Positions 1 through 16,258 of a stretch of DNA of 21,654 bases are shown here, piece by piece. Numbering within the stretch: the first letter of the stretch is position 1; every line of letters begins with the position of its first letter. Location of the stretch: contig JANNXQ010000028.1 of the NCBI GenBank assembly GCA_031409655.1, positions 1 to 21,654 on the forward strand, read 5' to 3'. The notes under the pieces are model-generated. The model had not been told where the DNA came from. It worked only from the letters and a program-made list of their open reading frames with translations, and made no database searches. The position numbers were made by a program, and so were the translations under genes. This stretch comes from Chthoniobacteraceae bacterium. GTDB lineage: Bacteria > Verrucomicrobiota > Verrucomicrobiia > Chthoniobacterales > Chthoniobacteraceae.

Positions 1-43
1 CGGCGAAGAAGGGCGAGCGGAGCGCGCGGCGCAGGAGTTTCAC
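1..43 (-). CDS. Probable 5' end of a gene running off the left edge (MKLLRRALRSPFFA...), coupled to the CHAT gene
   Basis: GTG at 43-41 overlaps the CHAT TGA stop (42-40) as GTGA. The frame is open to position 1. A basic N-terminus turning hydrophobic fits a signal or membrane anchor. Only 14 codons are visible. Confidence 0.5.
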   Translation of the reverse strand, partial: MKLLRRALRSPFFA

Positions 44-2394
44 AGCCAATTCCCGATGATGAGATACGGGGCCCAGAGGCACGGGTGACGGTAGCGCGGA
101 TTGGCCAGCAGCTTGCGTTGCGCGCCGCGCAGGGCCTGCGCCTTGGTCAGCTCCGGATCGGTGTGCAGCGCGGTGTAGAAGTCGTTGATGAGCTGCGTGG
201 AAGCCTCGTCACTGACAAACCAGAGCGTCGCGAAAGCGGCGCGCGCGCCCGCCTTCACGGCCACGCCCGCGAGGCCCAGCGCGGCGCGGTCGTCGCCGGC
301 CGCGGTCTGGCAGGCGCTGAGGGTGAGCAGCTCGACGGGCTGCTCGCGGAGTTGGCTCGGGCGGATCATCTGCTCGAGCTTGTCGAGCGAGAGCTTGCCA
401 TCGAAGGTGAGCACGAAGGACTTCTTCGCATCGCTGCTGAATTCGCCGTGGGAGGCGATATGCACCACGGAGAATTGCTGCTCTTTGAACTCCTTCGCCA
501 CGCTCTCGGTGAGGAACGTGCCGTTGAGCAGTTTGCTCCCTCCGTAGAGCGTATTGAGATCGCCGACTTCCTTCGCGACGAAAGGCAGCGCCGGAAAGCT
601 TTCGCCGTCCCGCTCCACGGCCTCGGAGAGTCCGCTGACCATCATCGCGATGCTCACGCGTTTGATTGCCTTTGGCTCCATGAGGCTGAGCCCGGGAGTG
701 ACGGCGATGGCATATTTTTCGACGAGAAACTTCTGGCCATCGTGGAGCGCGGCCATCGGGATGGTGCGCAGCGCGCCATCGGGCACGAAGACGAGCGTGT
801 CGATCTTCCCGCGGGCGAGCCGCGGCTCGAGGGGGCGGATGAGCCAGTCGTAGAGCTGCCAGGCTTCGGCAAGGAATTCGTTCGTCGTGCGGGTCTCGAG
901 ATGGGTGCGGAAGGCCCGGACGGTGTTGGTCAGGACGGCCGCAGTCACCGGCGCTTTCACCCGCTCGAGTCCGGCCGCGGTGCTGATGATGATCTCGGTG
1001 CGATCCGGCAGCGGCACGAGATAGAGCACCGCGGCACCTTTGGAGATTTCCTTCACGGTCGCCTCGACGGTCTTCTTTTTCGATTGCAGGAGATGCACAC
1101 AGTCGTCCTGAAAGTAGTCTTCGAGTTCCACCGCCTTGAGCAGCTCGCAGGTGTCCTGCGCTTCCCGGATGCACTGCACGACGGCCTCGGCATTGCCCAG
1201 CCCATCGGCGCGCTGGAGGAGCAGGTCCGCGAGTTCGAGGAAGACGTCGCCCACGGTTTCGCGGAAAGAGGTGCGGGCATTCGGATTCCCGAACCGGGCC
1301 GAGAGATCGGTGCGGATGCGCTCGATGTTCCCGATGGCCCGCCGGTAAGCCGCGATGGCTTCGTCGCGCCGGCCTTGCGCGCGGTCGATCCGGGCGGTCT
1401 GCCACTCCCAGCGATACAAGGCGTCGGGCGATTGCACCTTCTGTGCGAGGAAGGCCGCGCGACGCGTGAGGCGCAGCGCGTCCGCCCATTTTTTCTCCTG
1501 TTCGTAGAGATGCCCGGAGTAACCCAGCGCATAGGAAAGCGCGCGATCGTCGCCGAGCGCGGTCGCCGTGACGGCCGCTTTCTCATACGCGCGCAGGGCG
1601 TCGGCGCGCAGCCGATTGTCATGCGCCGGGGCGCGCTCGAAGAGCAGTTCCCAGTTCTTGCCCGCGCGCATCAGCGAGAAGGCCTTGTCGTGGGAATCGG
1701 GCAGCGCGAGCGCGGCGGCGAGGCCCGCGCGGTTCAAGTCGGCCGCCACCGCGAACTGCTCGCCGAGAACGGCGGTGCGGGCGGCGTTGATCGAGGCCTT
1801 CGTCGCGAGCGAGCCGTGGCCAGCCGCCTTGGCCAGCGATGCCGCCTCGCGATACGCATCCAGCGCCATGGCGAATTTCTCCTGCGCGCTCCGCAAGTTC
1901 CCGAGATCGTTCAGCACCGCCGCCACGGTCTCCTTTTCCCCAGCGGCACGCGCCACCTTGAGCGCTTCCTCCAGCGTCGGCTCCGCAGCGGCGGCGACAT
2001 GGGAAAATATCTGCAGACTCCCCAAGCGGGAGAGAGCCGCGGCCAGCCGGGCGCGGTCGCCCAGAGCCCGCGCTTCCTCGACGGCGTCGGTGGCCGCCTC
2101 GATCGCGCGGCGCTGTTCCCCGAGCGCCGCGTAGGCGCTCGCGAGATCGAGCTGGGTGTCGATCACCGCCGCCGCAGCGCTGTTTCGCTGATAGAGCACG
2201 AGCGCCGCTTGGTGCTCCGCGATCGCCTCCTCGAAGGCACCGCGTTCCGCAGCCTTCTCCGCCTTCATCCGCCGCTCGGAAGCACGTTCCTCCCAACCAG
2301 CGGAGGCCGTCGCAGAACCGACCCAGAGGGCCAGGAACGCGAGGACCAGCGGCCGCCACTTCATCGCCTGCTGAACGGTGCCAGTTTGTTGCAT
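40..2394 (-). CDS. Exported TPR + CHAT domain (caspase-like) protease
   Basis: Signal-like MKWRPLVLAFLALWVGSATASA, Ala-rich TPR helices, and CHAT motifs LVFVPDGALRTIPMAAL, VVHIASHG (His), LTLSACQT (Cys), ATLWFV and HPCLWAPYLIIGNWL. GAGGA SD precedes ATG 2394; alternative start at ATG 2364. Confidence 0.92.
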   Translation of the reverse strand: MQQTGTVQQAMKWRPLVLAFLALWVGSATASAGWEERASERRMKAEKAAERGAFEEAIAEHQAALVLYQRNSAAAAVIDTQLDLASAYAALGEQRRAIEAATDAVEEARALGDRARLAAALSRLGSLQIFSHVAAAAEPTLEEALKVARAAGEKETVAAVLNDLGNLRSAQEKFAMALDAYREAASLAKAAGHGSLATKASINAARTAVLGEQFAVAADLNRAGLAAALALPDSHDKAFSLMRAGKNWELLFERAPAHDNRLRADALRAYEKAAVTATALGDDRALSYALGYSGHLYEQEKKWADALRLTRRAAFLAQKVQSPDALYRWEWQTARIDRAQGRRDEAIAAYRRAIGNIERIRTDLSARFGNPNARTSFRETVGDVFLELADLLLQRADGLGNAEAVVQCIREAQDTCELLKAVELEDYFQDDCVHLLQSKKKTVEATVKEISKGAAVLYLVPLPDRTEIIISTAAGLERVKAPVTAAVLTNTVRAFRTHLETRTTNEFLAEAWQLYDWLIRPLEPRLARGKIDTLVFVPDGALRTIPMAALHDGQKFLVEKYAIAVTPGLSLMEPKAIKRVSIAMMVSGLSEAVERDGESFPALPFVAKEVGDLNTLYGGSKLLNGTFLTESVAKEFKEQQFSVVHIASHGEFSSDAKKSFVLTFDGKLSLDKLEQMIRPSQLREQPVELLTLSACQTAAGDDRAALGLAGVAVKAGARAAFATLWFVSDEASTQLINDFYTALHTDPELTKAQALRGAQRKLLANPRYRHPCLWAPYLIIGNWL

Positions 2395-2401
2395 TTTGTC
2401 C

Positions 2402-4882
2402 TCAGGATGCGTTCGTCACGCGCGCCAGCAGTTCGGAGCCGGTCATCCGGAAAGCCGCCTCGTGCGGACAGGAATAAACACAGCGCGGCAGCGGAGAGGA
2501 GCGCGTTCCGGCAGAATCGCAGAGGTCGCAGGTGGCGGCCTTCGGTTGCGCGATGCGCAGGCTGTGCGTGTGGCCCGCCGCCTTCGGTAGTTCGAGGGGC
2601 CGATGTTCATCCGGCGTCATGAAAATGCTGCCGTAAGGGCAATTCGTTGCGCACAAGCCGCAGCCGATGCAGTGATCTTCGATGACGATCTGCTGATGCC
2701 GGCCGCGATGGATGGAGTCCACCGGGCAGCCAGTCATGCAGTGCGGCGTCTCGCAGGAGCGGCAGGAAGTGGCGACGACGAAATTCCCGAAACGCGGCCC
2801 ATCGCGGAGCAGGCGGGTGATCGGCACGCCGTGCGATTCGACGCCGTGCTGCTGCACGCAGCCCTTGGTGCATTCGTCGCACCGCGTGCAGAGATCCAGG
2901 TCGAGCACGAGGACGCTCCGGGCCTCGTAGAGTCCCTGCTCCACGTACTGATTCATGAAGGGGTTCAGGTCGCGGGCGCTCCGCAGCCGCTCGAGGGAGG
3001 TCTCGACGATCCGGCGCCGCAGCGTCGGAAAATCGCGAATCATTTCGAGGAAATCGGCGCGATTCAGGCGCGCCAGTTCCACATGCTCCAGAGCCGTGCA
3101 GGTGGCCATGCGGACGCCGGCTGGGATCGCCCCAAGCAGTTCGGTGCCCGCGCCATCGAGCACGGCTTTGACGGCTCGGTCCACTTCGTCCGCGGTCTTG
3201 CCCGCGTCATCCGGCGAGACCGCCAGGAGGGCGATCTCGCCGAAAATCGAACCGGGCGGAAGACTGACCACGCGAGACTCACTGCCGAAGCGACGCAGCC
3301 CGACGCGGATGCGGCCGAGCCGCAACAAATAAAGACCATCGGCGGGATCCCCCTGCCGGAAGACGGTCTGGCCCGCGCCGACGCTCAGAAAGGAGAGTCG
3401 CGGTCGGAGAAATTCGATGAGCCGTCCGTACTCCGCGGTTTCGATCCCCTTGAACAAGTCCACACTCGACAAAACGACATCCAGCGAGCGCTCGCGATAG
3501 AGCCGCTCGAATTTTCCCCGCTGGCTCGGCAGCCGCATCAAACGATCGAGCACATTGCGGCGAATCTCCCAAATCTCCCCATCGTCCAGAGCCACGATGT
3601 CGGCGGATCTTGGCGAACTGCTCAGGCAGGCCATCTCGCCGACGATCACATCCGCGGGCGTCCGCTCCGCGCGAAACAAAACCTTTTCGCCCCTGCTCCG
3701 CGAGCGTCCGCCCCCAGATTGCGGCGCGCTCGCGAAGACCGACACTTCCAGTCTGCCGCGCCGAATGATGAACGCCGAATTGCCCGGATCGCCCTGCCGG
3801 CAAAGCACGTCACCCGCCTGGAATCGCCGGCGAACCGCCAGCCCTTGTTGCCAGAGGAGAAACTTCGGCGGCACGCCCGCGAAGAGCGGATCGCTGGTGA
3901 TTTCCGCGGCCGTCAAGACTTCGGATTTCCCCTGCCCGCTCGCGATTTTGACCTGCGCCACCGGTTTGAAAGTGATGGCGCTAGTCGGGCACGAGACCAT
4001 GCATTCGCCGCATTGCACGCAGCCCGATTCCGCCATCGGATCGTTCAGGTCAAAACCGATGCCCGCGCCCGCGCCCTTGCCCGTCCGGCCGATGATGTTG
4101 TTCCCCTTCACCTCATCACAGGCCCGGACGCAGCGGTCGCAGAGGATGCACGCGCTGTGATCAACGAGGAACACGGGAGACGAGGCGTCCACCGGCCGCC
4201 GCGGCGCGGCGGGAGCGTGGTTGGCAAAGGCGTCGAGCTGAAAGCGCGCGGCATCTCCCCCGCACCGCGCGTGGGCCTGCCCGAGTTCATTGAAGGCGGC
4301 GAGTTCCAGCGCGGGCGCGGGGGCGGGGGCCGGCTTCAAATGATCCGCGGCCAGCAATTCCGTGACCACTTTCACCGCCTGCCGGACGCGTTCTCCGTCC
4401 CGCCCAGGGGCGTTCATGGTGAAGACCTCCATCCCGTCTTTGACCGGATGCTGGCAGGCGGGCAGGAGCTTGCGTTCGGCGGCTCGCTTCCCGCGCTTTT
4501 GTCCGTAGATCTGCACGACACACACGCGGCAGACCGCCACCGGCGTCATGTGGGGCTGATGGCAAAGCGTGGGGATCGGGATCTTCGCTTCGTCGCCCGG
4601 CTCCCTCACGTAGAGCTTCACCGCGGCGTCGAAGATCGTGGTGTAGCGGGGCGTCGTCCGCCCTTCCCCATCGAGCACGATGTTGCCATTGGCATCGCCC
4701 AAGGGCTCCGCCAGTGGCACGGTCACGGCCTGGCCGTCGATCTGCAAGGTCACCGTCTTTCCGTAATCGGACTCCGCGGGAGCATCGAGGCGCACGAGTT
4801 GCCCGTCGATGTCGCGACTGAACAATCCCTCGTCGTCATCGCGAATGAACAGGCCCGTTTCGGGTTCGGGAGCTAGCGGCAT
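2402..4882 (-). CDS. Multi-Fe-S protein with tandem cNMP-binding domains ([2Fe-2S] + 2x[4Fe-4S] + 2x cNMP + 4x[4Fe-4S])
   Basis: IPTLCH..CRVC..LLPAC (NuoG/FdhA-type 2Fe-2S). CILCDRCVRAC and CVQCGECMVSCP. Two cNMP folds (RQGDPGNSAFIIRRG..VGEMACL..PRSA; RQGDPADGLYLLRLG..FGEIALL..VRMA). C-terminal 16-Cys DmsB-like pattern. GGAGG SD upstream; 10-bp overlap with the upstream gene. Confidence 0.9.
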   Translation of the reverse strand: MPLAPEPETGLFIRDDDEGLFSRDIDGQLVRLDAPAESDYGKTVTLQIDGQAVTVPLAEPLGDANGNIVLDGEGRTTPRYTTIFDAAVKLYVREPGDEAKIPIPTLCHQPHMTPVAVCRVCVVQIYGQKRGKRAAERKLLPACQHPVKDGMEVFTMNAPGRDGERVRQAVKVVTELLAADHLKPAPAPAPALELAAFNELGQAHARCGGDAARFQLDAFANHAPAAPRRPVDASSPVFLVDHSACILCDRCVRACDEVKGNNIIGRTGKGAGAGIGFDLNDPMAESGCVQCGECMVSCPTSAITFKPVAQVKIASGQGKSEVLTAAEITSDPLFAGVPPKFLLWQQGLAVRRRFQAGDVLCRQGDPGNSAFIIRRGRLEVSVFASAPQSGGGRSRSRGEKVLFRAERTPADVIVGEMACLSSSPRSADIVALDDGEIWEIRRNVLDRLMRLPSQRGKFERLYRERSLDVVLSSVDLFKGIETAEYGRLIEFLRPRLSFLSVGAGQTVFRQGDPADGLYLLRLGRIRVGLRRFGSESRVVSLPPGSIFGEIALLAVSPDDAGKTADEVDRAVKAVLDGAGTELLGAIPAGVRMATCTALEHVELARLNRADFLEMIRDFPTLRRRIVETSLERLRSARDLNPFMNQYVEQGLYEARSVLVLDLDLCTRCDECTKGCVQQHGVESHGVPITRLLRDGPRFGNFVVATSCRSCETPHCMTGCPVDSIHRGRHQQIVIEDHCIGCGLCATNCPYGSIFMTPDEHRPLELPKAAGHTHSLRIAQPKAATCDLCDSAGTRSSPLPRCVYSCPHEAAFRMTGSELLARVTNAS

Positions 4883-6948
4883 GACACATCCTCCCGGGTT
4901 TCGTCACGGACGGCATTTTCCGCCGCCCCCAAATGCTGCGCCAGGTCCTCTGGGAAAAAGCGGACCACCGTGCGCAGCGGCACCGGCACGGAGCGTCCGA
5001 GCCCGCAGATGGAAGCCAGCTCGATGACCGTGCCCATCTCCTGGACTAGGGGAAGGATCTCCTCCTGCCAACGAGCGGCGCTGATGCGACCTTCGAGCAG
5101 GTTTCTGCCGAGGTCCGCCAGCTTCTGCGAACCCAGCCGGCAGGGCACACATTTTCCGCAGGACTCCTGGCGGAAAAACTCGTTGGCATTCGCGGCCTGC
5201 TCCAGCATGTCGCGCCCCTCGGCATAGACCACCATGCCCGCGCCGAGCGCTTGCGTCGGGCTCAGCGCGCGGAAGACATTCAGCTCCAGTTCGAGATCGA
5301 GAATGTCGAGTTCGCCAGCCGCCGGATCGAAGCCCCGGCGGGCCGCGAGCGCCAGCCAGGTCTCATTGCTCGTGTGGTTTTTCGGCAGGCCACTCGCGAC
5401 CGTGAGTTTCGCCGGGAGAAATCCGCCTGATGGCCCGGAAGGCGCGAGCGCCTTCAAAGGCCGATCACCGACCATCCCCTGGCAGTAGCCTTCGCCGAAG
5501 AGCAGCTCGCGCACGGTGAGCCCCATCGGCACCTCATAGACTCCCGGCCGCTGCACATCGCCCGAGATCGAAAAGAACCGCCGCCCTTTCCACCCGTTCA
5601 CGCCCTGATCGGCGTAAGCCTGGCCGCCACGAAGTAAGATAAACGGCACCCAGATGAAGGTCTCCACATTACTAACGAGCGTCGGGAGATCTTGCAGTCC
5701 ATTGGTCTCGAGCTTCGGGGGCAAATTCCGTGGCTCACCCCGGCGGTCGGACATCGCCTCAATGAGCGCACTCTGCTCTCCGCAAATGTAGCCCCCGGGG
5801 CTGACGAACACCGAGATGGGAAAAGGCCGGCCCAGCACCGAAGCGTTTTCCCCGCAGATTCCCAACTGTTCGGCGCGCCGGATTTCCTCCCGGCACGCGG
5901 CGATCTGCTCGCTGTATTCGTGGCGGATGTAAATGAAGCCCTGGGTGGCTTCGGTGATCAGCCCAGCCAGGATCACCCCTTCGATGATGAGATGCGGTGT
6001 CCGGAGCAGGAGTTCGCGATCCTTGAAAGTGCCGGGCTCACTCTCGTCTCCATTCACCACGATGAAGGCCCGGTCGTCGGCCTGACGGCCGCGCGCCGTG
6101 CGCACCGCATCGCGCACATCGCGCCATTTCTGGATCGCCGGGATACCCGCGCCGCCCATGCCGCGGAGATCGGCCTGCTTGAGTTCCTCCAGCAAGCCGT
6201 CCGACCAGCCGCCGAGGTGCGCGCCCTTGGCCCAATCGTCGTCGAGCTGCCAGCAGCGCACGGCCTGCGCAACCGCGGCATCCATGGCGACTTCCACCCG
6301 CATCTGCCGGATCGCCCCAAACCGGAACTGTTCCGTGTTCTCGCGGCGCCAATCCGACCGCTCCGCCAGCAACTCCATCGCCGCCGCCAACGAGGCGTCG
6401 CGCACGGCGACCGCGTTTCGGACCGCCGCATAATCCGACGGACCTTCATAAGTCTCGACCATCCAAGCCGCCATCGTCGGCGCCAGATCCCCATCCCGAT
6501 CCGCCGGCGGGAGCAGACCCTGAAGACAACCCGCGGCCACCCCATCCAACTCGCCAAACGACCGCCCGAGGTAATAGTGGTCGTGCTCCAAACCTTTGAC
6601 CGAAAAACAAGCTGCCGGCGCCCGGTCACAGCGGCCCTGGCAAGACACGCTCTCGACCGCGACTTCGTCCCCTTCCAGAGACCCGGCCCGCGCGCGAAGC
6701 TCCGCCGAACCCGCCATGGAGCACGCCATATCCCGGCAAATCCGCAGGACGATCCGCCGCGCTGGCGACAAACGAAAATGCGGAAAGAAACTCGCCACTT
6801 CCTGAATGCGGTAGAGGGGCACACCCGATTCCTGCGCATACCGCTGCAAGGCGCTGCGCTCAAGATGCCCATACTCCTCCTGAATCCGCTGCAAAGTGGG
6901 GACGAGAACCGAACGGTAGAAATTTTCCTTCGTTGCGCTCATCTTCAC
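4873..6948 (-). CDS. NuoE-NuoF (HoxF-like) fused NAD(P)H-dependent flavoprotein/diaphorase
   Basis: NuoE part: VASFFPHF and CRDMAC...SCQGRCDRAP. NuoF part: LRGMGGAG, VNGDESEPGTFKDR, YICGEQSAL, NVET, SLBB region, and ESCGKCVPCRLG...SICGLG (N3 cluster). Start is GTG 6948 or ATG 6942. Confidence 0.9.
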   Translation of the reverse strand: MKMSATKENFYRSVLVPTLQRIQEEYGHLERSALQRYAQESGVPLYRIQEVASFFPHFRLSPARRIVLRICRDMACSMAGSAELRARAGSLEGDEVAVESVSCQGRCDRAPAACFSVKGLEHDHYYLGRSFGELDGVAAGCLQGLLPPADRDGDLAPTMAAWMVETYEGPSDYAAVRNAVAVRDASLAAAMELLAERSDWRRENTEQFRFGAIRQMRVEVAMDAAVAQAVRCWQLDDDWAKGAHLGGWSDGLLEELKQADLRGMGGAGIPAIQKWRDVRDAVRTARGRQADDRAFIVVNGDESEPGTFKDRELLLRTPHLIIEGVILAGLITEATQGFIYIRHEYSEQIAACREEIRRAEQLGICGENASVLGRPFPISVFVSPGGYICGEQSALIEAMSDRRGEPRNLPPKLETNGLQDLPTLVSNVETFIWVPFILLRGGQAYADQGVNGWKGRRFFSISGDVQRPGVYEVPMGLTVRELLFGEGYCQGMVGDRPLKALAPSGPSGGFLPAKLTVASGLPKNHTSNETWLALAARRGFDPAAGELDILDLELELNVFRALSPTQALGAGMVVYAEGRDMLEQAANANEFFRQESCGKCVPCRLGSQKLADLGRNLLEGRISAARWQEEILPLVQEMGTVIELASICGLGRSVPVPLRTVVRFFPEDLAQHLGAAENAVRDETREDVSCR

Positions 6949-7234: not shown

Positions 7235-7489
7235 ATGACTGACACCACGGAAATCCAGGCACTCCGCATCCACGAAAAAGACACGGGAAGTGCCGACGTG
7301 CAAATCGCCCTCCTGACTGCGCGAATCAACCACCTGACGGAGCACTTGAAAGGTCATGTGAAGGATCACTCCTCACGGCGCGGCCTGCTGATGCTCGTCG
7401 CCCGGCGGCGCAAGATGCTCGATTATCTCAAGCGCACCGCGAGCGATCGCTACAAGAACGTGCTCGAGAAATTGAGTCTGCGGAAATAG
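7235..7489 (+). CDS. rpsO: 30S ribosomal protein S15
   Basis: [47 protein letters not shown] signature; lies upstream of pnp. Confidence 0.98.
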
Positions 7490-7503
7490 CGACTCTTCGA
7501 TTT

Positions 7504-7548
7504 TGAAAACGGTGCGCCCGCGATCTTCTCGCGGGCGAACTGTTTCAG
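7504..7548 (+). other. Stem-loop after rpsO (possible attenuating terminator or processing stem)
   Basis: CGCCCGCGA (7515-7523), loop TCTTC, TCGCGGGCG (7529-7537), extended imperfectly by TGAAAACGGT/ACTGTTTCA. No clean U-tract. Confidence 0.5.
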
Positions 7549-7651
7549 CCCCCAACGAAAAACTTTCCCGCAGCGCTTTGGCCCTTCGCCTGAGCGGTGC
7601 GTCAACCACAGGAAAAACAACCAGCCGGCACTCCCTTTTTCCCCTCCGGGC

Positions 7652-7794
7652 CTAGTCTTAGCCCCGGGCTTTCACGGCCTCCCTCTTCTTCTCCTTCTTC
7701 ATCTCCTCCTCCTTCTTCCGACAATCCACCGGAAGCAGAAGGAGATGAAGTAGGAGAAGAAGAAGATTTGAGAAAGTCCCGGGCTACGAGCTAG
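7652..7794. repeat. Long imperfect inverted repeat (about 140 nt hairpin) in the pnp leader
   Basis: Left arm 7652-7720 (CTAGTCTTAGCCCCGGGCTTTC...TCTTCTTCTCCTTCTTCATCTCCT...CTTCCG), loop ACAATCCAC, right arm 7730-7794 (CGGAAG...AGGAGATGAAGTAGGAGAAGAAGA...GAAAGTCCCGGGCTACGAGCTAG). Confidence 0.85.
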
Positions 7795-7846
7795 CCGTCC
7801 GTTCGGAAAATGTGGGTGCCAGGCGCAAAACAAAACAAGCACACCC

Positions 7847-9982
7847 ATGATCCATAATGTCACCGCCCACGTCGGGCCCAATCCCATCACCATCGAAACC
7901 GGCAAGCTCGCGAATCTCGCGGACGGCGCCGTCACCGTCCGCAGCGGCGAGACCATCATGTTCGTCTCCGCCGTCTCCGCAACCAGCATCAAGGAAGGCC
8001 AGGACTGGTTCCCGCTTTCCGTCGAATATCGCGAAAAAGCCGCCGCGGTCGGCAAGTTCCCCGGCGGCTACTTCAAGCGCGAAGGCCGGCCCACCGAAAA
8101 GGAAGTCCTCACCTGCCGCATGACGGATCGCCCGCTGCGTCCGCTCTTCCCGAAAGGCTACCTCTACGACACCCAGATCATCGGCGTCCTGCTCAGCGCG
8201 GATGGCGAGCATGATCCCGACATTCTGATGATGAACGGCGCGAGCGCCGCCCTCATGGTCAGCGATATTCCCTTTGCCGGCCCCGTGGCCGCCGTCCGCG
8301 TCGGACGCGTGAATGGCCAGTTCGTCGTGAATCCCGGCCATAGCCAGCGCGAGTCGAGCGATCTCGACCTCGTCTATGTCGGAACGAAGGACGACGTCAT
8401 CATGATCGAAGGCGCTGCCGACGAGTTGCCTGAGGAAGATTTCGTGAACGCGTTGAAATTCGCGCATGCGGAAGCCAGCAAGCTCATCGCCGCGCAGATC
8501 GAACTCGCCGCGAAAGCCGGCAAGGTGAAGCGCGAAGTCCCGCTCTTTACGGTGCGCGAAGAACTCATGGAAGTCGCCTATTCTGTCGCTGGTGATCGCA
8601 TCGAGGGAGCCATCTACAACCCGACCAAGGTCGCCCGCTCCAAAGCGATCGGCGCGCTCAAGGAAGAAGTCACCGCCGCGATCGTGGCGAAGTTCCCCGA
8701 AGCCTCGAAGTTCGAAGTCAGCCAGGCCTTTGACTATCTCCAGAAGAAGGCCTTCCGCATCAGCATCCTCGACAAGCAAGTGCGCGCCGACGGTCGCGGA
8801 CCCGATGCCATCCGCCCGCTGAGCGCCGAAGTCGGCATGCTCCCGCGTTCACATGGCAGCGCCATCTTCAATCGCGGCGAAACGCAAGCCGTGGCGCTCG
8901 CCACCCTCGCTCCCGCCGAGGAAGCTCAGGATCTCGACGGCTACACTGGCGGCGAGACTACCAAACGCTTCATCCTGCACTACAACTTCCCGCCTTTCTC
9001 CGTCGGCGAGACCGGCCGCACCGGCGGCATGAACCGCCGCGAGATCGGCCACGGCGCGCTCGCCGAGCGCTCCATCGAGCCCGTCATCCCGAGCGTCACC
9101 GATTTCCCCTACGCCATCCGCGTGAGCAGCGAAGTCATGTCGTCGAATGGCTCCACCTCCATGGCCAGCGTCTGCTCCGGCATCCTCGCCCTCATGGACG
9201 CAGGCGTGCCGATCAAGAAGCCCGTCGCCGGCATCAGTTGCGGCCTCGTCACCGAGTACGACGGCGCCACGCTGAAGCGCTACACGATGCTCAACGACAT
9301 CATCGGCAGCGAAGATCACTTCGGCGACATGGACTTCAAACTCTGCGGCACCGACGCCGGCGTCACCGGCTTCCAGCTTGACCTCAAACTCCCCGGCATC
9401 TCGCTGCGCATGATGGAGGAAGCCGTCTATCGCACGCGCGACGCCCGCATGATCGTGCTCGCCGCGATGGCCGAGGCCATCAACGCCCCGCGCACCGAAC
9501 TCAGCAAATACGCCCCGCGCATCGAGACCATCAAGATCAACCCCGAGAAGATCGGCATGCTCATCGGGCCCGGCGGCAAGAACATCAAAGGCATCGTTGC
9601 CGAGACCGGTTGCGAAATTAACGTCGACGACGACGGCATGGTCCGCATCTACTCGAACAACCCCGAAGGCATGGCCCGCGCCAAGCAGATCATCGACGGC
9701 ATGTTCGCCGAGATGGAAGTCGGCGCGATCTACCAGGGCAAAGTCGTGACGATCAAAGAATTCGGCGCCTTCGTCGAAGTCCTGCCCGGCAAGGACGGCC
9801 TCGTCCACATCAGCGAGCTCGCGGACTTCCGAGTAAATCGCACCGAAGACGTCGTCAAGATGGGCGAACTCATCTGGGTGAAAGTCGTCGGCGTAGATGA
9901 AAAGGGCCGCGTGAAGCTCAGCCGCAGAGCCGCAATGAAAGAGCGCGGCGAAGCCATGGCCCCCGCGCCGGCTCAAACGTAA
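7847..9982 (+). CDS. pnp: Polyribonucleotide nucleotidyltransferase (PNPase)
   Basis: [51 protein letters not shown] and [10 protein letters not shown] motifs, then KH (IGPGGKNIK) and S1 ([20 protein letters not shown]) domains. Confidence 0.98.
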
Positions 9983-10042: not shown

Positions 10043-10253
10043 GCGCGAATATGGCGAGGTCATCTCCGGCTCAGGCGGAGGAAGGCCGCGAGGGCCGGGA
10101 GAGGTGCTGGGGAAGCAGACCGGGTAGCCGCTGTGAAATCGATCATCACCATGCCATCGTCAATCTCCACCATTCCCTTGCGCCGCCCGATTGCCTATCT
10201 ATCACCTCCCACAGCTTACTCGTATTTCCGAACGAGCCACTCCTCCTCATCCC

Positions 10254-11504
10254 GTGCTTACCCTCGAAAAATTCTCCATCGGTGTCGGCGACCGTTTCGC
10301 CCACCAAGCCAAAGCCCAGCTCCGCGCCTGCCAGCTCCTCGCCCGCGATGGCGCGGAGGTCGTGCCGGTCTGGAATAAGTCGAACCGCGAACATACCTTC
10401 GTGGGCTCGGAGCCAGAATCGGTGCTCGTCGCCGCGCGCGACGCGGTGCAGGCGCTCGGCTGGAAAGGCGGCTGGCACGTGGATGCCGATCACATCCGGC
10501 TCGAAACCGTGGATCGCTTTCTCCCGCACTCCGATTTTTTCACCCTCGATGTCGCGGATTCCATCGGCCAGCCAGCGGCTCCCGCGGACGTGCAGGCTTT
10601 CGTGGATCGGCATCCCGAACTCCTCGGAATGATCTCGATCCCGCAGATCGCGACACCCTTCACCACCACCCGCGCTGAGATCGAGCGCATCGCCGGGAAG
10701 TTCCTTCTGGCCGTGCAGGATGCAGGGAAGATCTACCGCCACATCGCGGAGAAGAAGGGCGCGGACCACTTGATCGCCGAGGTCTCGATGGATGAAACGG
10801 ACACGCCGCAGACACCGCCGGAGCTGCTGGTGATCCTCGCCGCGCTCGCCGACGAAAAAGTGCCCGTACAGACCATCGCGCCGAAGTTCACCGGTCGCTT
10901 CAACAAGGGCGTCGATTACGTCGGTGACCTCGCGCAGTTCGAACGGGAATTTCACGACGATCTCGCGGTCATCGCCCACGCCATTGCCCGCTACGGACTC
11001 CCGGCGAATCTCAAGCTCAGCGTCCACAGCGGGAGCGACAAATTTTCCCTCTACCCGATCATCCGGCGCACGCTACCGAAATTCGGCGCGGGTCTGCATC
11101 TGAAGACGGCGGGCACGACGTGGCTCGAGGAACTCATCGGCCTCGCCGAAGCCGGAGGGGAAGGTCTCGCGCTCGCGCAGGAGATCTACGCCGGAGCGAT
11201 CGGTCATGTGGATGAATTCTGCGCGCCCTACGCCTCGGTGATCGACATCGACAAAGCGCAGCTCCCGACCGCGGACGAAGTCGCCGGCTGGACCAGCGAC
11301 CAATACACCGGCGCGCTCCGCCACGATCAAAAGAACCCGCGCTTCAACGCCAGCTTCCGGCAACTCCTCCATGTGTCCTTCAAACTTGCGGCCAAGAAAG
11401 GCCAGCGCTACCTCGACCTCCTCCTCGCCAACGAAGAGATCGTCGGGAAGAACGTGACGGAAAACCTCTACGTGCGGCACCTGAAGCCGCTCTTTATCGG
11501 ATAG
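10254..11504 (+). CDS. uxaE: Tagaturonate/fructuronate epimerase family protein (UxaE)
   Basis: FSIGVGDRF, HVDADH, EVSMDET, APKFTGRFNKGVDY, KLSVHSGSDKFS and HLKTAGTTWLEE motifs. GTG 10254 is preferred over the ORF-track start at 10191. Confidence 0.85.
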   Translation: MLTLEKFSIGVGDRFAHQAKAQLRACQLLARDGAEVVPVWNKSNREHTFVGSEPESVLVAARDAVQALGWKGGWHVDADHIRLETVDRFLPHSDFFTLDVADSIGQPAAPADVQAFVDRHPELLGMISIPQIATPFTTTRAEIERIAGKFLLAVQDAGKIYRHIAEKKGADHLIAEVSMDETDTPQTPPELLVILAALADEKVPVQTIAPKFTGRFNKGVDYVGDLAQFEREFHDDLAVIAHAIARYGLPANLKLSVHSGSDKFSLYPIIRRTLPKFGAGLHLKTAGTTWLEELIGLAEAGGEGLALAQEIYAGAIGHVDEFCAPYASVIDIDKAQLPTADEVAGWTSDQYTGALRHDQKNPRFNASFRQLLHVSFKLAAKKGQRYLDLLLANEEIVGKNVTENLYVRHLKPLFIG

Positions 11505-11506
11505 CG

Positions 11507-11550
11507 AATTTTGAAAACACAGAGATGCAGAGACGCGGAGGACGCAGAGA
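11507..11550 (+). repeat. Left inverted-repeat arm of the GxxExxY cassette (tandem ~8-9 nt CGCAGAGA-like units)
   Basis: AATTTTGAAAACACAGAGATGCAGAGACGCGGAGGACGCAGAGA, a near reverse complement of 11978-12019. Confidence 0.88.
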
Positions 11551-11556
11551 AGAGAC

Positions 11557-11976
11557 ATGCATGAGAATGAACTTTCGCGGTTGATCATCGGGGCCGCGAT
11601 CGAAGTGCATCGCGAAGCAGGACCGGGACTGATCGAAAAGCCTTACGAGGAAGCGATGTGCCATGAGTTGAATCTGCGTGGGTGGAAGTTCACTCGCCAG
11701 CGGGCAGTGCCGTTCGTTTATAAGGGAATCACGCTCTCCACAGACTTGCGCACGGACCTCATCGTCGCGGACAAGGTGATCGTGGACTTAAAAGCGAAAG
11801 ATCAAATCAGCGCCATCGACAAAATGAAGATGCTCACCTACCTGCGCTTTCACAATCTGCGGCTCGGACTGATCATCAACTTCCACGTCGAGTTGCTCAA
11901 AGATGGAGTTCATCGAGTCGTCAACAACCTCCTGCCTCCTCCCCCGCCCGAAACACCAGCAAACTTCCACGCCTGA
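11557..11976 (+). CDS. GxxExxY protein (PD-(D/E)XK nuclease-like)
   Basis: IIGAAIEVHREAGPGLIEKPYEEAM (GxxExxY), RTDLIVADKVIVDLKA (D...DxK) and YLR...GLIINF. 139 aa with a Pro-rich tail; visibly more A/T-rich than its neighbours. Confidence 0.93.
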   Translation: MHENELSRLIIGAAIEVHREAGPGLIEKPYEEAMCHELNLRGWKFTRQRAVPFVYKGITLSTDLRTDLIVADKVIVDLKAKDQISAIDKMKMLTYLRFHNLRLGLIINFHVELLKDGVHRVVNNLLPPPPPETPANFHA

Positions 11977-11977
11977 A

Positions 11978-12019
11978 TCTCTGCGCTCCTCTGCGCCTCT
12001 GCATCTCTGCGTTAAAATT
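11978..12019 (-). repeat. Right inverted-repeat arm of the GxxExxY cassette
   Basis: TCTCTGCGCTCCTCTGCGCCTCTGCATCTCTGCGTTAAAATT, starting 1 nt after the GxxExxY stop. Confidence 0.88.
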
Positions 12020-12036
12020 TTACCGATTGTACCGAA

Positions 12037-12891
12037 GTGAAATCCGCCATCACCGTCTCCCTCGTCCCGCAAGCCGCTGGCGGTCCATTCGTTTTTTGGA
12101 ACGGACTGGCTGACGCTTTTGAACAGGCGGCGGCGTTCGGTTTCGATGCGGTGGAGATTTTTCCGCCGGGCGCTGAGGCTCTCGACACGACCGCGATTCG
12201 GGCGCTGGCGGCGAAGCATCGCCTCGCGATCGCTGCGGTCGGCACAGGTGGCGGATGGGTGATCCATAAATTGACGCTCACCCATGCCGAACCATCGATC
12301 CGCGCGAACGCCCGGGAGTTCATCCGCGGCCTCATCGACAAAGCCGCGGCGCTCGATACGCCGGCGATCATCGGCTCGATGCAGGGACGATGGGAAGGTG
12401 GCGTGACCCGCGAACAGGCCCTCACCTGGCTGGGAGAAGCACTCGAGGATCTCGGCGCGCACGCGGCAAAGCTTGGGCAGCACTTGCTCTACGAGCCACT
12501 GAACCGCTACGAGACGAATCTCCTCCACCGCACGCCGGATGCCGCCGCCTGGCTGCGCACCCTCGACACGGACAATGTCCGCATCCTCTCCGACCTCTTT
12601 CACATGAACATTGAAGAGCCCGATATCGCGACCTCGCTCCGCGAAGCGGGCAGCCTTGTCGGCCACGTTCACTTTTCCGACTCAAACCGGCGGGCGATCG
12701 GGCTCGGGCATACGGACGTGGCGCCGATCATCGGGGCGCTGAGGGATATCGATTACACTGGCTACCTCTCGGCAGAGATCGTCCCGCTGCCGGATGCGGC
12801 CACGGCGGCACGGAAGACGATCGAGAGCTTCCAGCACTTCACGACGGGCGAACATCGAACCTCGAACGTCGAACATCGAACCTCGAAATGA
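12037..12891 (+). CDS. Sugar isomerase/epimerase, xylose-isomerase-like TIM barrel (D-tagatose 3-epimerase / IolO-like)
   Basis: GFDAVEI, IIGSMQG, YEPLNRYET, DLFHMNIEE, HVHFSDSNRR and YLSAE metal-binding motifs. GTG start; the last 13 aa are repeat-encoded. Confidence 0.88.
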   Translation: MKSAITVSLVPQAAGGPFVFWNGLADAFEQAAAFGFDAVEIFPPGAEALDTTAIRALAAKHRLAIAAVGTGGGWVIHKLTLTHAEPSIRANAREFIRGLIDKAAALDTPAIIGSMQGRWEGGVTREQALTWLGEALEDLGAHAAKLGQHLLYEPLNRYETNLLHRTPDAAAWLRTLDTDNVRILSDLFHMNIEEPDIATSLREAGSLVGHVHFSDSNRRAIGLGHTDVAPIIGALRDIDYTGYLSAEIVPLPDAATAARKTIESFQHFTTGEHRTSNVEHRTSK

Positions 12892-12952
12892 TTGGGCTGC
12901 CGCGCTGTTTCCTTGTTCGAGGTTCAGTGTTCGAAGTTCGATGTTCGATGTT
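12849..12952. repeat. Inverted heptamer tandem-repeat hairpin, (CGAACNT)n...(NGTTCGA)n
   Basis: Left 12849-12887: CGAACAT CGAACCT CGAACGT CGAACAT CGAACCT CGAA. Spacer 26 nt. Right 12914-12952: TGTTCGA GGTTCAG TGTTCGA AGTTCGA TGTTCGA TGTT. Confidence 0.9.
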
Positions 12953-12963
12953 TTCTCCACTCC

Positions 12964-13413
12964 ATGCTCAAGACCACCCAACTCCTCCACCCCGAGATCC
13001 TGCGCATCGTCGCTCGCGCCGGGCATCACTCCAAGATCCTGATCGCCGACGGCAACTATCCCGCCTCGACGAAACGGGGTCCCAACGCCGAACTCGTCTG
13101 CCTCAATCTTGCCCCCGGCGTCGTCACCGTCGCGCAAGTCTTGCGCGCGCTGCTCAGTGAAGTCCCCGTGGACCATCTGAATACCATGGGCATCCCGGCG
13201 GACGATCCGTATGCCAGTTTTGGCGAGCCGCCGGTGTGGGCGGAATTGCGCAGCATCACCCACGAAGCCGGCCTCAAAGTGATGGTCGAGCCGATCCCGA
13301 AATGGGACTTCTACAAGGCCGTGGAATCACCCGACCATGTGCTCACCATCCAAACTGCCGACCAGGCGCTGTGGGCGAATGTCCTCCTCACCATGGGCTG
13401 CCGCACCGCCTGA
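12964..13413 (+). CDS. RbsD/FucU family sugar mutarotase/pyranase
   Basis: MLK..LLHPEILRIVARAGHHSKILIADGNYP N-terminus, KWDFY and IQTADQALWANVLL. Start is ATG 12964; the ORF-track extension is repeat-derived. Confidence 0.88.
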   Translation: MLKTTQLLHPEILRIVARAGHHSKILIADGNYPASTKRGPNAELVCLNLAPGVVTVAQVLRALLSEVPVDHLNTMGIPADDPYASFGEPPVWAELRSITHEAGLKVMVEPIPKWDFYKAVESPDHVLTIQTADQALWANVLLTMGCRTA

Positions 13414-13418
13414 CGGCG

Positions 13419-13449
13419 GAAATCCGAAATCCGAAATCCGAAACTCGAA
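13419..13449 (+). repeat. Solo heptamer tandem array (GAAATCC)3 GAAACTC GAA
   Basis: Fills almost the whole gap between the mutarotase stop (13413) and the AKR ATG (13450). No inverted partner was seen. Confidence 0.85.
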
Positions 13450-14385
13450 ATGTTACCCACCCGCCGCCTCGGTCGCACCGATCTCCAACTTCCCATCCTC
13501 AGCTTCGGCGCTTCATCGCTCGGGCAGGAATTTCGCAGCGTCAAACTCGATGAAGCCCTCGGTAGCGTCCGCGCGGCGCTCGATGCAGGGCTCAACTTCA
13601 TCGACACCTCGCCCTTCTACGGACGCGGTATGAGCGAAGTCCTGCTCGGTATCGCGCTCCGCGGCATCCCGCGCGAGAGCTACATGCTTTGCACCAAAGT
13701 GGGGCGCTACGATCTGCAGCATTTTGACTTCAGCGCGAAGCGCATGGCGGAAAGCGTGGAAGTCTCGCTGCACCGCCTCGGCACTGAGTATCTCGACATC
13801 GTGCTCTGCCACGACATCGAGTTCGTGCCGCTCCAGCAAATCGTGGATGAGACGATTCCCGCGCTCCGCAAAATCCAGCAGCAGGGCAAGGTGCGCTACA
13901 TCGGCTTCAGCGGATATCCCATGAAGATCTTCCGCACGATCCTCGACCAGACCCATGTGGACTGCGTGCTGAGCTACAATCAATACACGCTGCAAAACAC
14001 GCGCTTCGCCGACGAGATCATCCCGTATCTGGAGTTGAAAGGCGTAGGCGTGATGAATGCCGGCCCCTTCAGCGCCCGCCTGCTCACCAATGCTCCCCTC
14101 CCCGCGTGGCTCAAGGAACCCGAGGAAGTGAAGGCCGCCGCACGCAAGGCCGCGGAACTCTGCGAAAAGGAGGGTTCGGACATCGCCAAGCTCGCGCTGC
14201 AATTCTGCATCGGGAATGCGGACATCACGACGACCATCGCCGGGAGCGCCAATCCCGAGAACGTGAAGAAGTGGGCCGAATGGGCCGCCGAACCGCTCGA
14301 CCGCAAACTGCTCGCGAAAGTGGAGAAGATCTTCGAGCCCGTGAAAAACATCGGCCACCCCGAAGGCCTGCCCGAAAACAACTAA
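13450..14385 (+). CDS. Aldo/keto reductase, L-galactose dehydrogenase-like
   Basis: RRLGRTDL..LSFGASSLG, GLNFIDTSPFYG, LCTKVGRY, SLHRLGTEYLDIVLCHDIEF and GKVRYIGFSGYP. Confidence 0.85.
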   Translation: MLPTRRLGRTDLQLPILSFGASSLGQEFRSVKLDEALGSVRAALDAGLNFIDTSPFYGRGMSEVLLGIALRGIPRESYMLCTKVGRYDLQHFDFSAKRMAESVEVSLHRLGTEYLDIVLCHDIEFVPLQQIVDETIPALRKIQQQGKVRYIGFSGYPMKIFRTILDQTHVDCVLSYNQYTLQNTRFADEIIPYLELKGVGVMNAGPFSARLLTNAPLPAWLKEPEEVKAAARKAAELCEKEGSDIAKLALQFCIGNADITTTIAGSANPENVKKWAEWAAEPLDRKLLAKVEKIFEPVKNIGHPEGLPENN

Positions 14386-14399
14386 CCGCGCGTCATTCC

Positions 14400-15428
14400 A
14401 TGAAGGCCATCTCGCTCAACGAGCCTCAGCAATTTAGCCGCATCGAAGTCTCCGAGCCCCCGGCCCCCGGCGCGGGCGAAGTGCTCGTGCGCGTCCATCG
14501 TATCGGCATCTGCGGCACCGACTACAGTGGCTATCTCGGGAAGATGCCGTTCTTCAGTTACCCGCGCATCCCGGGACATGAACTCGGCGTGGAAGTTCTC
14601 GCCGTCGGCGAAGGTGTCACCCAAGTGCGCGTCGGTGATCGCTGCGCCGTCGAGCCGTACATGAATTGCCAGCAGTGTTACCCATGCCGGCATGGCAATG
14701 GAAACTGCTGTGAATCCCTGAAAGTGATCGGCGTCATGACCGACGGAGGCATGCGCGAGCGGATCCTCTTACCCGCCCGCAAAGTGCATCCGGCAAACGC
14801 GCTCTCTCCCGATCAATGCGCGCTCGTCGAGACCCTGGCGATCGGCTGCCACGCGGTAAACCGCGGCGCACCCGTGCCCGGAGAAAATGTGCTCGTCATT
14901 GGCGCGGGCCCGATCGGGCTCAGTGTCATTGAGTTTGCGAAGCTCAGCGGCGCGCGGACCATCGTGATGGACTTGAACGAGCAGCGCCTCGAATTCGTGC
15001 GTAAGAAGATGGGGGTACCGGACACGATTTTTTCCAAAGGCGACGGCTCGGAACTCGAGACGCTGCAGGAAATGACCAGCGGCGATCTCGCGCAAGTGGT
15101 GATCGACGCGACGGGCAGCCACAAATCCATGTCGGGATGCTTCCAATTCGCCGGCTTCACTGGGCGCGTCGTTTACGTCGGCATCACGCAACAGGAGGTC
15201 TCCTTCCCGCACGCCCCACTCGTCCACCGCCGCGAACTCACCCTCCTGGCCAGCCGCAACGCGCATCCCGCGGACTTTACGCGGATCGTAAAATTGATCG
15301 AAGACGGCAAAATCGACACCCGCCCGTGGATCACCCACCGCGCGACTTTCGACGCGATGATCGACGTCTTCCCGGCCTGGCTGAAGCCGGAGAGCGGCGT
15401 GATCAAAGCAATCGTGAGTGTGGACTGA
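14400..15428 (+). CDS. Zinc-dependent sugar-acid dehydrogenase (L-galactonate 5-dehydrogenase YjjN/LgoD-like)
   Basis: GICGTD, YPRIPGHELG, structural Zn motif CQQCYPCRHGNGNCC, VIGAGPIG and RRELTLLASRNA. True start is ATG 14400. Confidence 0.88.
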   Translation: MKAISLNEPQQFSRIEVSEPPAPGAGEVLVRVHRIGICGTDYSGYLGKMPFFSYPRIPGHELGVEVLAVGEGVTQVRVGDRCAVEPYMNCQQCYPCRHGNGNCCESLKVIGVMTDGGMRERILLPARKVHPANALSPDQCALVETLAIGCHAVNRGAPVPGENVLVIGAGPIGLSVIEFAKLSGARTIVMDLNEQRLEFVRKKMGVPDTIFSKGDGSELETLQEMTSGDLAQVVIDATGSHKSMSGCFQFAGFTGRVVYVGITQQEVSFPHAPLVHRRELTLLASRNAHPADFTRIVKLIEDGKIDTRPWITHRATFDAMIDVFPAWLKPESGVIKAIVSVD

Positions 15429-16258
15429 TGCGTCTCGATTCGCATCAACACTTCTGGCGCTACGACGCGGCGCAGTACCCCTGGATTCCGCAGGGCTCGC
15501 CTTTGCACCGCGACTGGCTGCCTGCGGATCTTGCGCCGCTGCTCGCGACCGCGAAGCTCGATGGGTGCATCGCGGTCCAGGCGCGGCAGACGCTCGACGA
15601 GACGCGTTGGCTTTTGGGGCTGGCGGAATCTTCGGCGATCATCAGAGGTGTGGTCGGCTGGGTGGATTTGCGGAGCGAGCGCGTGGGGGAGCAACTCGCG
15701 GAGTTTGCGGGCAATGCGAAGTTCGTTGGCGTGCGCCACGTGGTGCAGGATGAGCCGGATGTGGACTTCATCCGTGGCGCGGACTTTCAACGCGGGATCG
15801 CACGGTTGCAGCCGCTAGGGCTGACCTACGACCTGCTCATATTCCCGAAACAACTTCCCGCAGCGATCGATCTCGTGAGCAAATTTCCGGAACAGCGTTT
15901 CGTGCTCGATCACATCGCCAAACCGGCGATCAAGAACGGCACGATGTCGCCGTGGCGGGAGCTGATCCGCGAACTGGCGCAGGCGCGGAATGTGACCTGC
16001 AAGGTGAGCGGCATGATCACTGAGGCCAGCCGCGCCGGGTGGGCGGCGGACGACTTCAAGCCGTATCTCGACACGGTTGCCGAGGCCTTCGGTTCGGGCC
16101 GGCTGATGTACGGCAGCGACTGGCCGGTGTGCCTGCTCGCGGGGAGTTACGAGCGGGTGTTTCAGCTGGTGGAGGAATACTTTGCGCCGCTTTCCGCGAT
16201 GGAACGTGCGGCAGTCTTCGGGGTGACGGCGGAGACGTTTTACTTCGGGGCTCGCTGA
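15428..16258 (+). CDS. Amidohydrolase-family sugar lactonase (L-fucono/L-galactono-1,5-lactonase-like)
   Basis: MRLDSHQHFW, IAVQA, GVVGWVDL, GVRHVVQDE, FVLDHIAKP, CKVSGMITEA and RLMYGSDWPV. TGATG overlap with the upstream gene. Confidence 0.88.
   Translation: MRLDSHQHFWRYDAAQYPWIPQGSPLHRDWLPADLAPLLATAKLDGCIAVQARQTLDETRWLLGLAESSAIIRGVVGWVDLRSERVGEQLAEFAGNAKFVGVRHVVQDEPDVDFIRGADFQRGIARLQPLGLTYDLLIFPKQLPAAIDLVSKFPEQRFVLDHIAKPAIKNGTMSPWRELIRELAQARNVTCKVSGMITEASRAGWAADDFKPYLDTVAEAFGSGRLMYGSDWPVCLLAGSYERVFQLVEEYFAPLSAMERAAVFGVTAETFYFGAR

Follow-up and report, generated by a model that had tools for sequence, protein, structure and literature searches.

A tandem cyclic-nucleotide-binding iron-sulphur protein paired with a NuoEF diaphorase in a Chthoniobacteraceae bacterium: a candidate cytoplasmic arm of a Ptd/PCC4-type electron conduit

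A stretch of 21,654 nucleotides (nt) from contig JANNXQ010000028.1 (C28) of the Chthoniobacteraceae bacterium assembly GCA_031409655.1, referred to here as the window, encodes an iron-sulphur (Fe-S) protein with two cyclic-nucleotide-monophosphate (cNMP) domains, directly preceded by a fused NuoE-NuoF diaphorase (NuoEF). We put forward a reading whose chances we judge to be about even, in which these two proteins would together make up the cytoplasmic part of a conduit of the Ptd/PCC4 type, through which NAD(P)H electrons are exported to periplasmic haems, with cNMP binding repositioning the C-terminal DmsB module of the Fe-S/cNMP protein. Sequence comparison indicates that the unit travelling together is cNMP-cNMP-DmsB, a PtdE-type core onto which inputs attach. 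This large family has members among the soil and freshwater Verrucomicrobiota, Acidobacteriota and Planctomycetota, and also in Sphingobium. In bacteria, cyclic nucleotides are known to act on respiration by way of transcription (CRP) and of a few allosteric enzymes, and our literature search found no direct allosteric cNMP control of an Fe-S electron wire.

Domains and nucleotide-binding sites of the Fe-S/cNMP protein

Relatives of the Fe-S/cNMP protein comprise at least 120 clusters (90% identity) that match it at 64% identity or higher over 97-100% of its length, and 168 genomic stretches, mainly from Verrucomicrobiota with some from Acidobacteriota and Planctomycetota, encode a relative; the open reading frame (ORF) is therefore genuine and not an assembly artefact. 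Of the 168 stretches 80 were kept for the locus counts given below as "/80", with 37 of these forming a full-flank subset, and residue counts refer to alignment A4 (109 sequences, ~27-76% identity) and to the 98 full-length homologues in it. Pfam assigned Fer2_4 to residues 42-156, Fer4 to 241-306, two cNMP_binding stretches (E 1e-34) and Fer4 to 702-809, while NCBIfam returned HoxU/HydA/NuoG matches at 70-320 and HydN/NrfC/DmsB matches at 653-811, every one under its curated cut-off. Together with the retention of 28/28 cluster cysteines in 98/98 homologues, these assignments bear out the domain order [2Fe-2S], 2x[4Fe-4S], cNMP, cNMP, 4x[4Fe-4S] that an earlier sequence-only reading of this DNA had proposed. 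That reading had also quoted four C-terminal cysteine motifs, all of which are present where it placed them (C665/668/671/675, 707/710/715/719, 738/741/744/748 and 785/788/801/805), and the domain search it had suggested confirmed the architecture and its occurrence in many relatives. Seven Fe-S clusters are predicted in total, four of them C-terminal.

The His-3Cys [4Fe-4S] motif of NuoG and HydA is missing in 98/98 close homologues. A motif search of 64 distant fused forms gave three regular-expression matches, all inside the ferredoxin motif and none at the His-3Cys site, and a two-Cys remnant of that site survives in some distant NuoG-fused forms. No H-cluster or Mo/W-bisPGD-fold domain was matched in Pfam or NCBIfam, residues 321-826 being fully assigned otherwise. 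The AlphaFold2 model built from the 109 sequences reached a mean predicted local distance difference test score (pLDDT) of 78.3 and a predicted template modelling score (pTM) of 0.72, superseding a poor earlier run with 22 sequences (pLDDT 59.5). A structural search returned single-domain matches only, namely the N-termini of formate dehydrogenase (FDH), complex I and HoxU, cyclic-nucleotide-binding (CNB) domains, and the HDCR Fe-S subunit; no solved chain combining CNB and Fe-S domains was among the matches listed.

Both cNMP domains had been described in the sequence-only reading as keeping the GE...R phosphate-binding residues. For site A this holds in the canonical form G-E-x8-R, with an E416-R425 spacing of 8 in 98/98 that fits the G-E-x(7-9)-R receptor pattern, and G415, E416 and R425 are invariant in 109/109 A4 sequences. 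In site B the residues are kept (E549 in 97/98, R591 in 96/98) but split by a ~33-residue insert, giving an E-to-R distance of 41 residues in 88/98 (range 36-44); the model places the insert helices at 557-561 and 564-577. When all front-end types described below were compared, R425 was present in 59/65 NuoG-type, 16/16 TrxR-type and 9/9 PtdC-clade proteins and was replaced by H or Y in 5/65, which are distant NuoG-type members. Cysteines are conserved inside both pockets (C419 in 96/98, C595 in 94/98). Selection on the cNMP pockets is supported, and the predicted ligand is most likely cAMP.

A shared core, its donor and its candidate acceptor

In the sequence-only reading the cNMP pair was inserted in the middle of an Fe-S relay. 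Instead, comparison shows cNMP-cNMP-DmsB to be a unit of its own, found with three different NAD(P)H inputs or with no input in the vicinity. The first front end is the fused N-terminal part of NuoG (NuoG-N) accompanied by NuoEF, as in the window, which made up 64 of the best 150 representative matches at 50% clustering. A TrxR-like flavoprotein is fused in the second, for which at least 6,748 clusters (90%) at E<=1e-100 were counted among 8,000 scored candidates. This form is exemplified by Sphingobium herbicidovorans, where genes for the membrane protein and a cytochrome c3-family protein come after the TrxR-fused core, multihaem and haem-binding genes lie close by, and two metallophosphoesterase genes flank the cluster. 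The third is a separate FAD/NAD(P)-2Fe-2S reductase (PtdC), Pfam-confirmed in 4 loci. The input position of the core is thus taken by NAD(P)H flavoproteins of three unrelated kinds. Since the core recurs with four front ends, counting the operons that have no input nearby, and every type retains site A, the cNMP pair goes together with the membrane protein and the DmsB module, not with the NuoG domain. In a core tree (154 sequences, 362 columns, FastTree, midpoint root, 3 gappy rows dropped) the TrxR and PtdC types formed clades and the NuoG-fused forms did not form a single one; because this tree is in effect unrooted and its sampling query-biased, we draw no conclusion on which arrangement came first. 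In several lineages, relatives of PtdE, PtdC or PtdG carry a fused FHA domain (L097:9642-11654, L097:11834-13507, L087:17225-19024; P0171, P0184, P0199), hinting at phosphothreonine control besides cNMP.

On the donor side, NuoEF lies directly upstream of the Fe-S/cNMP gene in 67/67 loci with more than 2.3 kb of upstream sequence (76/80 overall), with a median gap of ~4-6 nt, and protein P0192 (1,483 amino acids, aa) is a natural single chain of NuoE-NuoF and the entire Fe-S/cNMP protein. This linkage and fusion support feeding of the relay by the neighbouring NuoEF. NuoF retains the FMN and N3 motifs and a complex-I-like DESEPGT motif, without additional ferredoxin domains, and its loop reads YICGEQS instead of YICGEE, with Gln in 67/68 homologues; the aligned NAD-dependent FDH beta subunit reads GEE at this position. 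In complex I this Glu reportedly favours NADH against NADPH, as judged from mutants of E. coli NuoF at E183; literature searches gave no support for this, and the GEE-to-GEQ change is accordingly treated as a lead only to possible NADPH use. A CysJ-like FAD/NAD-binding flavoprotein was observed near the cluster in 9/80 loci (L009, L015, L040, L049, L052, L054, L059, L030 and, upstream, L079).

On the acceptor side, the statement that the terminal acceptor is not identifiable holds for the window only. Elsewhere in this genome, and in related ones, a membrane protein with two haem motifs and a decahaem cytochrome emerge as candidates. Neighbourhood clustering of the 80 loci recovered a decahaem cytochrome in 39, a ~310-aa membrane protein in 38, a trihaem c554-like cytochrome in 37, an LVIVD-repeat decahaem protein in 27, a barrel-like protein in 21 and an HbpS-like protein in 20. 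PtdF (the membrane protein) and PtdG (the decahaem cytochrome) each lie within 10 kb in 27/37 full-flank loci, the remaining 10 genomes all carrying PtdF elsewhere, and PtdF, PtdG, NuoEF and the Fe-S/cNMP gene are co-directional neighbours in 19/80. In an even sample of 301 genomes of the phylum, the core (called at E<=1e-20) was found in 13 and full-length PtdF in the same 13, with five others giving short weak matches only; the profile used included sequences from five of these genomes, and closely related genomes do not count as independent cases. In a set of 61 relatives PtdF was present in 15/15 core-bearing genomes plus two more, and in the one of these two that was checked a core adjoins PtdF.

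The genome studied here also encodes these proteins. Contig C244 carries HbpS-like, trihaem, membrane protein and decahaem genes, contigs C203, C42 and C100 carry the barrel-like protein and the LVIVD-decahaem protein, and cytochrome c assembly genes are present. Across 30 aligned PtdF-type membrane proteins (alignment A3) the two WX3HX13H motifs with their four invariant His were found in 30/30 and SGxxG in 28/30, along with five hydrophobic segments, from which the protein likely holds two haems. Searches of a PtdF profile against solved structures gave two chance cullin matches only, and in the ESM Atlas PtdF and the barrel-like protein matched hypothetical clusters only, except for a single alginate-export entry, which covered 21% of members. 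When residues 615-826 were modelled in complex with PtdF, the interface score (ipSAE) was 0.55 against 0.00 for the best control, with at least 93% of contacts agreeing between runs and a partner pLDDT of at least 76. The mark applied was passed by 116/157 solved and 2/215 mismatched pairs, although of the pairs that passed it at ipSAE <=0.60 just 18 were solved ones, next to the two mismatches, and the PtdF job differed from the calibration; the prediction gives weak support to docking of the DmsB module on PtdF.

Further features of the cytochrome genes were observed. A multi-domain HbpS-like haem-binding protein accompanies the cytochrome cluster (L081:1-1623, L087:26801-28777) in 20/80 loci and in Sphingobium. 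The barrel-like protein (811 aa, no Pfam match) is followed by a ~1,300-aa decahaem LVIVD-repeat protein (L082:1-4211, G000 C42 and the end of C100); the latter is split over three contigs, and the pair shows 65-77% identity among relatives.

Candidate electron route and its alternatives

In the proposed mechanism electrons would pass from NAD(P)H to FMN and N3 in NuoF, then to the [2Fe-2S] cluster, the two ferredoxin-type clusters and the four DmsB-type clusters. From there they would reach two b-haems of the PtdF-type membrane protein and the membrane-anchored periplasmic decahaem cytochrome, and continue onward to the trihaem cytochrome and the LVIVD-repeat decahaem protein. In complex I the His-3Cys cluster passes electrons on toward NuoI, whereas in hydrogenases and FDHs they exit through the ferredoxin cluster on the side of the catalytic domain. 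With no His-3Cys cluster here, only the second route is left: electrons would probably leave the N-terminal module via the cluster facing the catalytic domain in HydA/FdhA, and the DmsB module would have to dock there. Binding of cNMP, mainly at site A, may shift the C-terminal helices, which run from domain B into the DmsB module, and this shift would set how the module docks onto the donor or the membrane partner. Domains, ligand residues, gene linkage and co-occurrence are observed in the sequences; cofactor loading, complex formation, direction of flow, ligand identity and gating are predictions. A broader version, which we hold more tentatively and consider somewhat improbable, describes a widespread NOX-like exporter in which cAMP on the Fe-S subunit opens an NAD(P)H-to-multihaem envelope wire, with three independently recruited flavoprotein inputs and, here, an NADPH-retuned diaphorase derived from complex I. 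The conduit question is addressable with soluble proteins and cultured Sphingomonadaceae.

Several observations weigh against the gated export conduit. The Fe-S/cNMP and NuoEF pair is located on C28 and ptdF/ptdG on C244, so that they are not adjacent in this genome, and contig-end matching found no join between C28 and C244. GE...R is frequent in the other cNMP domains of this genome and hence shows a pocket of the fold, not gating, and site B, interrupted by its insert here, lacks E549 in 9/9 PtdC-clade proteins. In favour of cNMP control, 16/80 loci have a CHASE2 class III cyclase at a distance of 10 kb or less and this genome has 12 cyclase-domain matches, but cyclase linkage is a minority (12/37) in the full-flank subset and a figure without a background control. 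The fourth front end consists of PtdE-PtdF-PtdG without a nearby flavoprotein match in 9 close-relative loci (L101-L105, L107, L108, L088, L089). Five such input-less genomes yielded only distant NuoF-type matches (36-41%) and no dedicated NuoG-N with the queries used, and three of the five have distant PtdC-like genes elsewhere. As input-less operons exist, a fixed NAD(P)H input is not obligatory.

The same conduit might run ungated, the cNMP-fold pair serving as a structural spacer or as a dimerisation or docking unit, or binding a ligand other than a cyclic nucleotide. The insert in site B and its degeneration in the PtdC clade, the conserved pocket cysteines C419 and C595, the change of R425 to H/Y in distant NuoG-type members, and fold matches that include nucleoside-binding trypanosome PKA-R structures would all agree with such a role. 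We nevertheless regard it as unlikely, given that G415/E416/R425 are invariant over the entire identity range of A4, that R591 is retained despite the insert, that cyclase genes recur nearby and that metallophosphoesterase genes flank the Sphingobium cluster. A conduit operating inward appears quite improbable. Its haems would take electrons from donors in the periplasm or outside the cell, and either the Fe-S arm would pass them to NAD(P)+ or the membrane protein would exchange with quinone. NAD(P)+ reduction from c-type haems is usually uphill and the cluster has no pump or bifurcation element, and the complex-I-like DESEPGT of NuoF and its lack of extra ferredoxin domains would also speak against inward flow. 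NuoEF modules are reversible, however, and the operons without an input would suit inward flow. PCC4, too, was described from genomes of Fe(II) oxidisers with a membrane protein proposed to exchange with quinone and electrons flowing inward (PMC5566968, in the parts available). Against inward flow, the His pattern of PtdF resembles that of ferric reductase/NOX membranes, where NAD(P)H electrons are exported.

The genes could also encode a signalling device, that is, a low-flux redox wire read or set by cNMP. It would be tied to CHASE2 cyclases that sense the envelope, to FecR-TPR barrels and to genes of two-partner secretion. We give this a similarly small probability. No output domain (DNA-binding, kinase or cyclase) is fused to the protein, seven clusters and more than 20 haems represent a large investment typical of real flux, and ptdAB was highly transcribed in metagenome-assembled genomes from marine oxygen-deficient zones according to the accessible text of a preprint (bioRxiv 10.1101/2023.11.21.568154). 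Pointing toward signalling are the CHASE2 cyclases, FecR-TPR genes in 7/80 and ShlB in 3/80 loci, the FHA fusions, a patchy distribution (13/301 genomes), and the presence of the cluster in Sphingobium, an aerobic genus.

Genomic surroundings and comparison with known systems

The features of the two proteins and of their putative partners are listed in Table 1. A TPR-CHAT protein with an N-terminal hydrophobic segment (40..2394, minus strand) is encoded co-directionally 7 nt downstream of the Fe-S/cNMP gene and was rejected as a partner, being found in 1/80 loci. The second genomic match, on C127, is an assimilatory-nitrate-reductase-linked DmsB/DmsC-type fusion without cNMP domains and unrelated. 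A scan of promoters and terminators gave nothing exceeding shuffles. Upstream of nuoEF the window contains the housekeeping pair rpsO-pnp (7235-9982, minus strand) and, at 10191-16258 on the plus strand, genes of sugar-acid catabolism (UxaE epimerase, xylose-isomerase-like, RbsD/FucU, aldo-keto reductase, dehydrogenase and amidohydrolase). Elsewhere, L083:4085-15862 is an assimilatory nitrate/nitrite reduction cluster with a 551-aa DmsB-DmsC-like fusion beside a molybdopterin enzyme, as judged from translations only. Very long repeat-rich ORFs (900-2,250 aa) surround a ShlB/FhaC transporter in L084-L085 (G000 C100:10159-49924), an island of two-partner-secretion type as far as the ORF listing goes.

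Table 1. Coordinates of the Fe-S/cNMP protein, its domains, NuoEF and the candidate partner proteins (window positions unless a contig is given).
Feature	Position	Strand	Basis or details
Fe-S/cNMP protein (NuoG-N fused to PtdE-type core), 826 aa	2402..4882	(-)	ORF, Pfam, NCBIfam, homologues, model
[2Fe-2S] domain, NuoG N1b type, residues 42-156, C107/C118/C121/C143	4415..4759	(-)	Pfam Fer2_4; Cys invariant 98/98
His-3Cys [4Fe-4S] site remnant, H181 and N-E-L retained, cysteines gone	4283..4357	(-)	alignment A4
2x[4Fe-4S] ferredoxin domain, C245/248/251/255 and C288/291/294/298	3965..4165	(-)	NCBIfam, Pfam Fer4 at 241-306, alignment
cNMP domain A, cassette G415-E416...P424-R425, conserved Y462-R463 helix	3488..3832	(-)	Pfam, alignment
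cNMP domain B, G548-E549 and R591 retained	2978..3397	(-)	Pfam, alignment
~33-residue helical insert within domain B phosphate-binding cassette	3119..3223	(-)	spacing, model; missing from Sphingobium homologue
DmsB/HydN/NrfC-like 4x[4Fe-4S] module, 16 Cys	2438..2920	(-)	HycB3 E 1e-11, NrfC/PsrB E 3e-9
NuoE-NuoF fusion (FMN/NAD(P)H diaphorase)	4873..6948	(-)	Pfam, NCBIfam; 10-nt overlap with Fe-S gene start
PtdF-type membrane protein, this genome	C244:3033-4004		five hydrophobic segments, SGxxG, two WX3HX13H
PtdG-type decahaem cytochrome, this genome	C244:4017-5528		10 CxxCH, one transmembrane segment at 31-49

Like PKA-R, PKG and the mycobacterial Pat acetyltransferase, the protein combines a tandem CNB fold with the GE...R cassette; unlike them, its effector would be an Fe-S electron-transfer module. 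Like NuoEFG, HoxEFU, FdsGBA and HydABC, the pair shows a NuoE [2Fe-2S], a NuoF with FMN and N3, and a NuoG-type [2Fe-2S] plus 2x[4Fe-4S], and the best solved matches were HydABCSL subunit A, FDH alpha subunits and HoxU. It differs from these systems in having no H-cluster, Mo/W or NiFe domain, in the loss of His-3Cys, in NCBIfam scores under the cut-off and in the NuoF GEQ (67/68). By these sequence features the Fe-S/cNMP protein is not a member of NuoG, HoxU, HydA or FdhA.

PCC4 subgroup II has been described with an inner-membrane protein of five transmembrane segments bearing SGXXG and two WX3HX13H motifs, an upstream pfam13247 Fe-S gene and a 10-haem cytochrome, the available text giving 4/5/10-haem cytochromes for PCC4 (PMC5566968). 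The membrane motifs, the Fe-S gene and the 10-haem cytochrome are present here, whereas the cytochromes carry 3/10/10 haems. Cyclic-nucleotide domains have no mention in the main text and text supplements of PMC5566968, whose domain-architecture figure may be an image, and cyclic nucleotides are absent from the available text of PMC5615132, PMC6295460 and PMC6344600. A functional study of the Fe-S/cNMP protein was not found in the literature, a search not reaching subscription journals or bioRxiv supplements.

The closest likeness was observed with ptdABCDEFG, described in the accessible part of a preprint (10.1101/2023.11.21.568154) with PtdE as a cyclic-nucleotide-binding protein with 4Fe-4S, PtdF as a ferric-reductase-like membrane protein and PtdG as a decahaem cytochrome, the function of the cluster being called completely unknown. 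At locus L097, one of those with this gene set, the core is homologous to residues 415-818 (E 1e-29), PtdF to that of this genome (E 3e-10) and PtdG likewise (E 6e-12 to 5e-13); the likeness to PtdE is drawn from architecture and gene order in the preprint's accessible part, not from its own sequences. Unlike in Ptd, the input here is NuoEF with the fused NuoG-N and not PtdC, for which tblastn of this genome with two queries gave only an FHA-region match, so that NuoEF and NuoG-N would take the role of PtdC. The four C-terminal clusters contrast with two in that part of the preprint. Tblastn with presumed L094/L097 sequences as queries gave no match to the pentahaem PtdA or the porin PtdB in this 306-contig genome. 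Instead of PtdA, PtdB and PtdC the genome has the LVIVD-decahaem protein, the unrelated barrel-like protein, the trihaem cytochrome and the HbpS-like protein. Whereas Ptd forms a single cluster, the genes are split here over C28, C244 and C203/C42/C100 and are clustered in 27/37 full-flank relatives. The locus shares the E-F-G core of Ptd/PCC4 and falls outside on PtdC and on clustering. The NuoG-fused PtdE would be a variant of the described Ptd/PCC4 system, of which Tables S7/S8 of the ptd preprint could list NuoG-fused forms, and the swappable inputs suggest NAD(P)H as the likely donor and PtdF, then PtdG, as the likely acceptors for a cluster left functionally open by the two papers.

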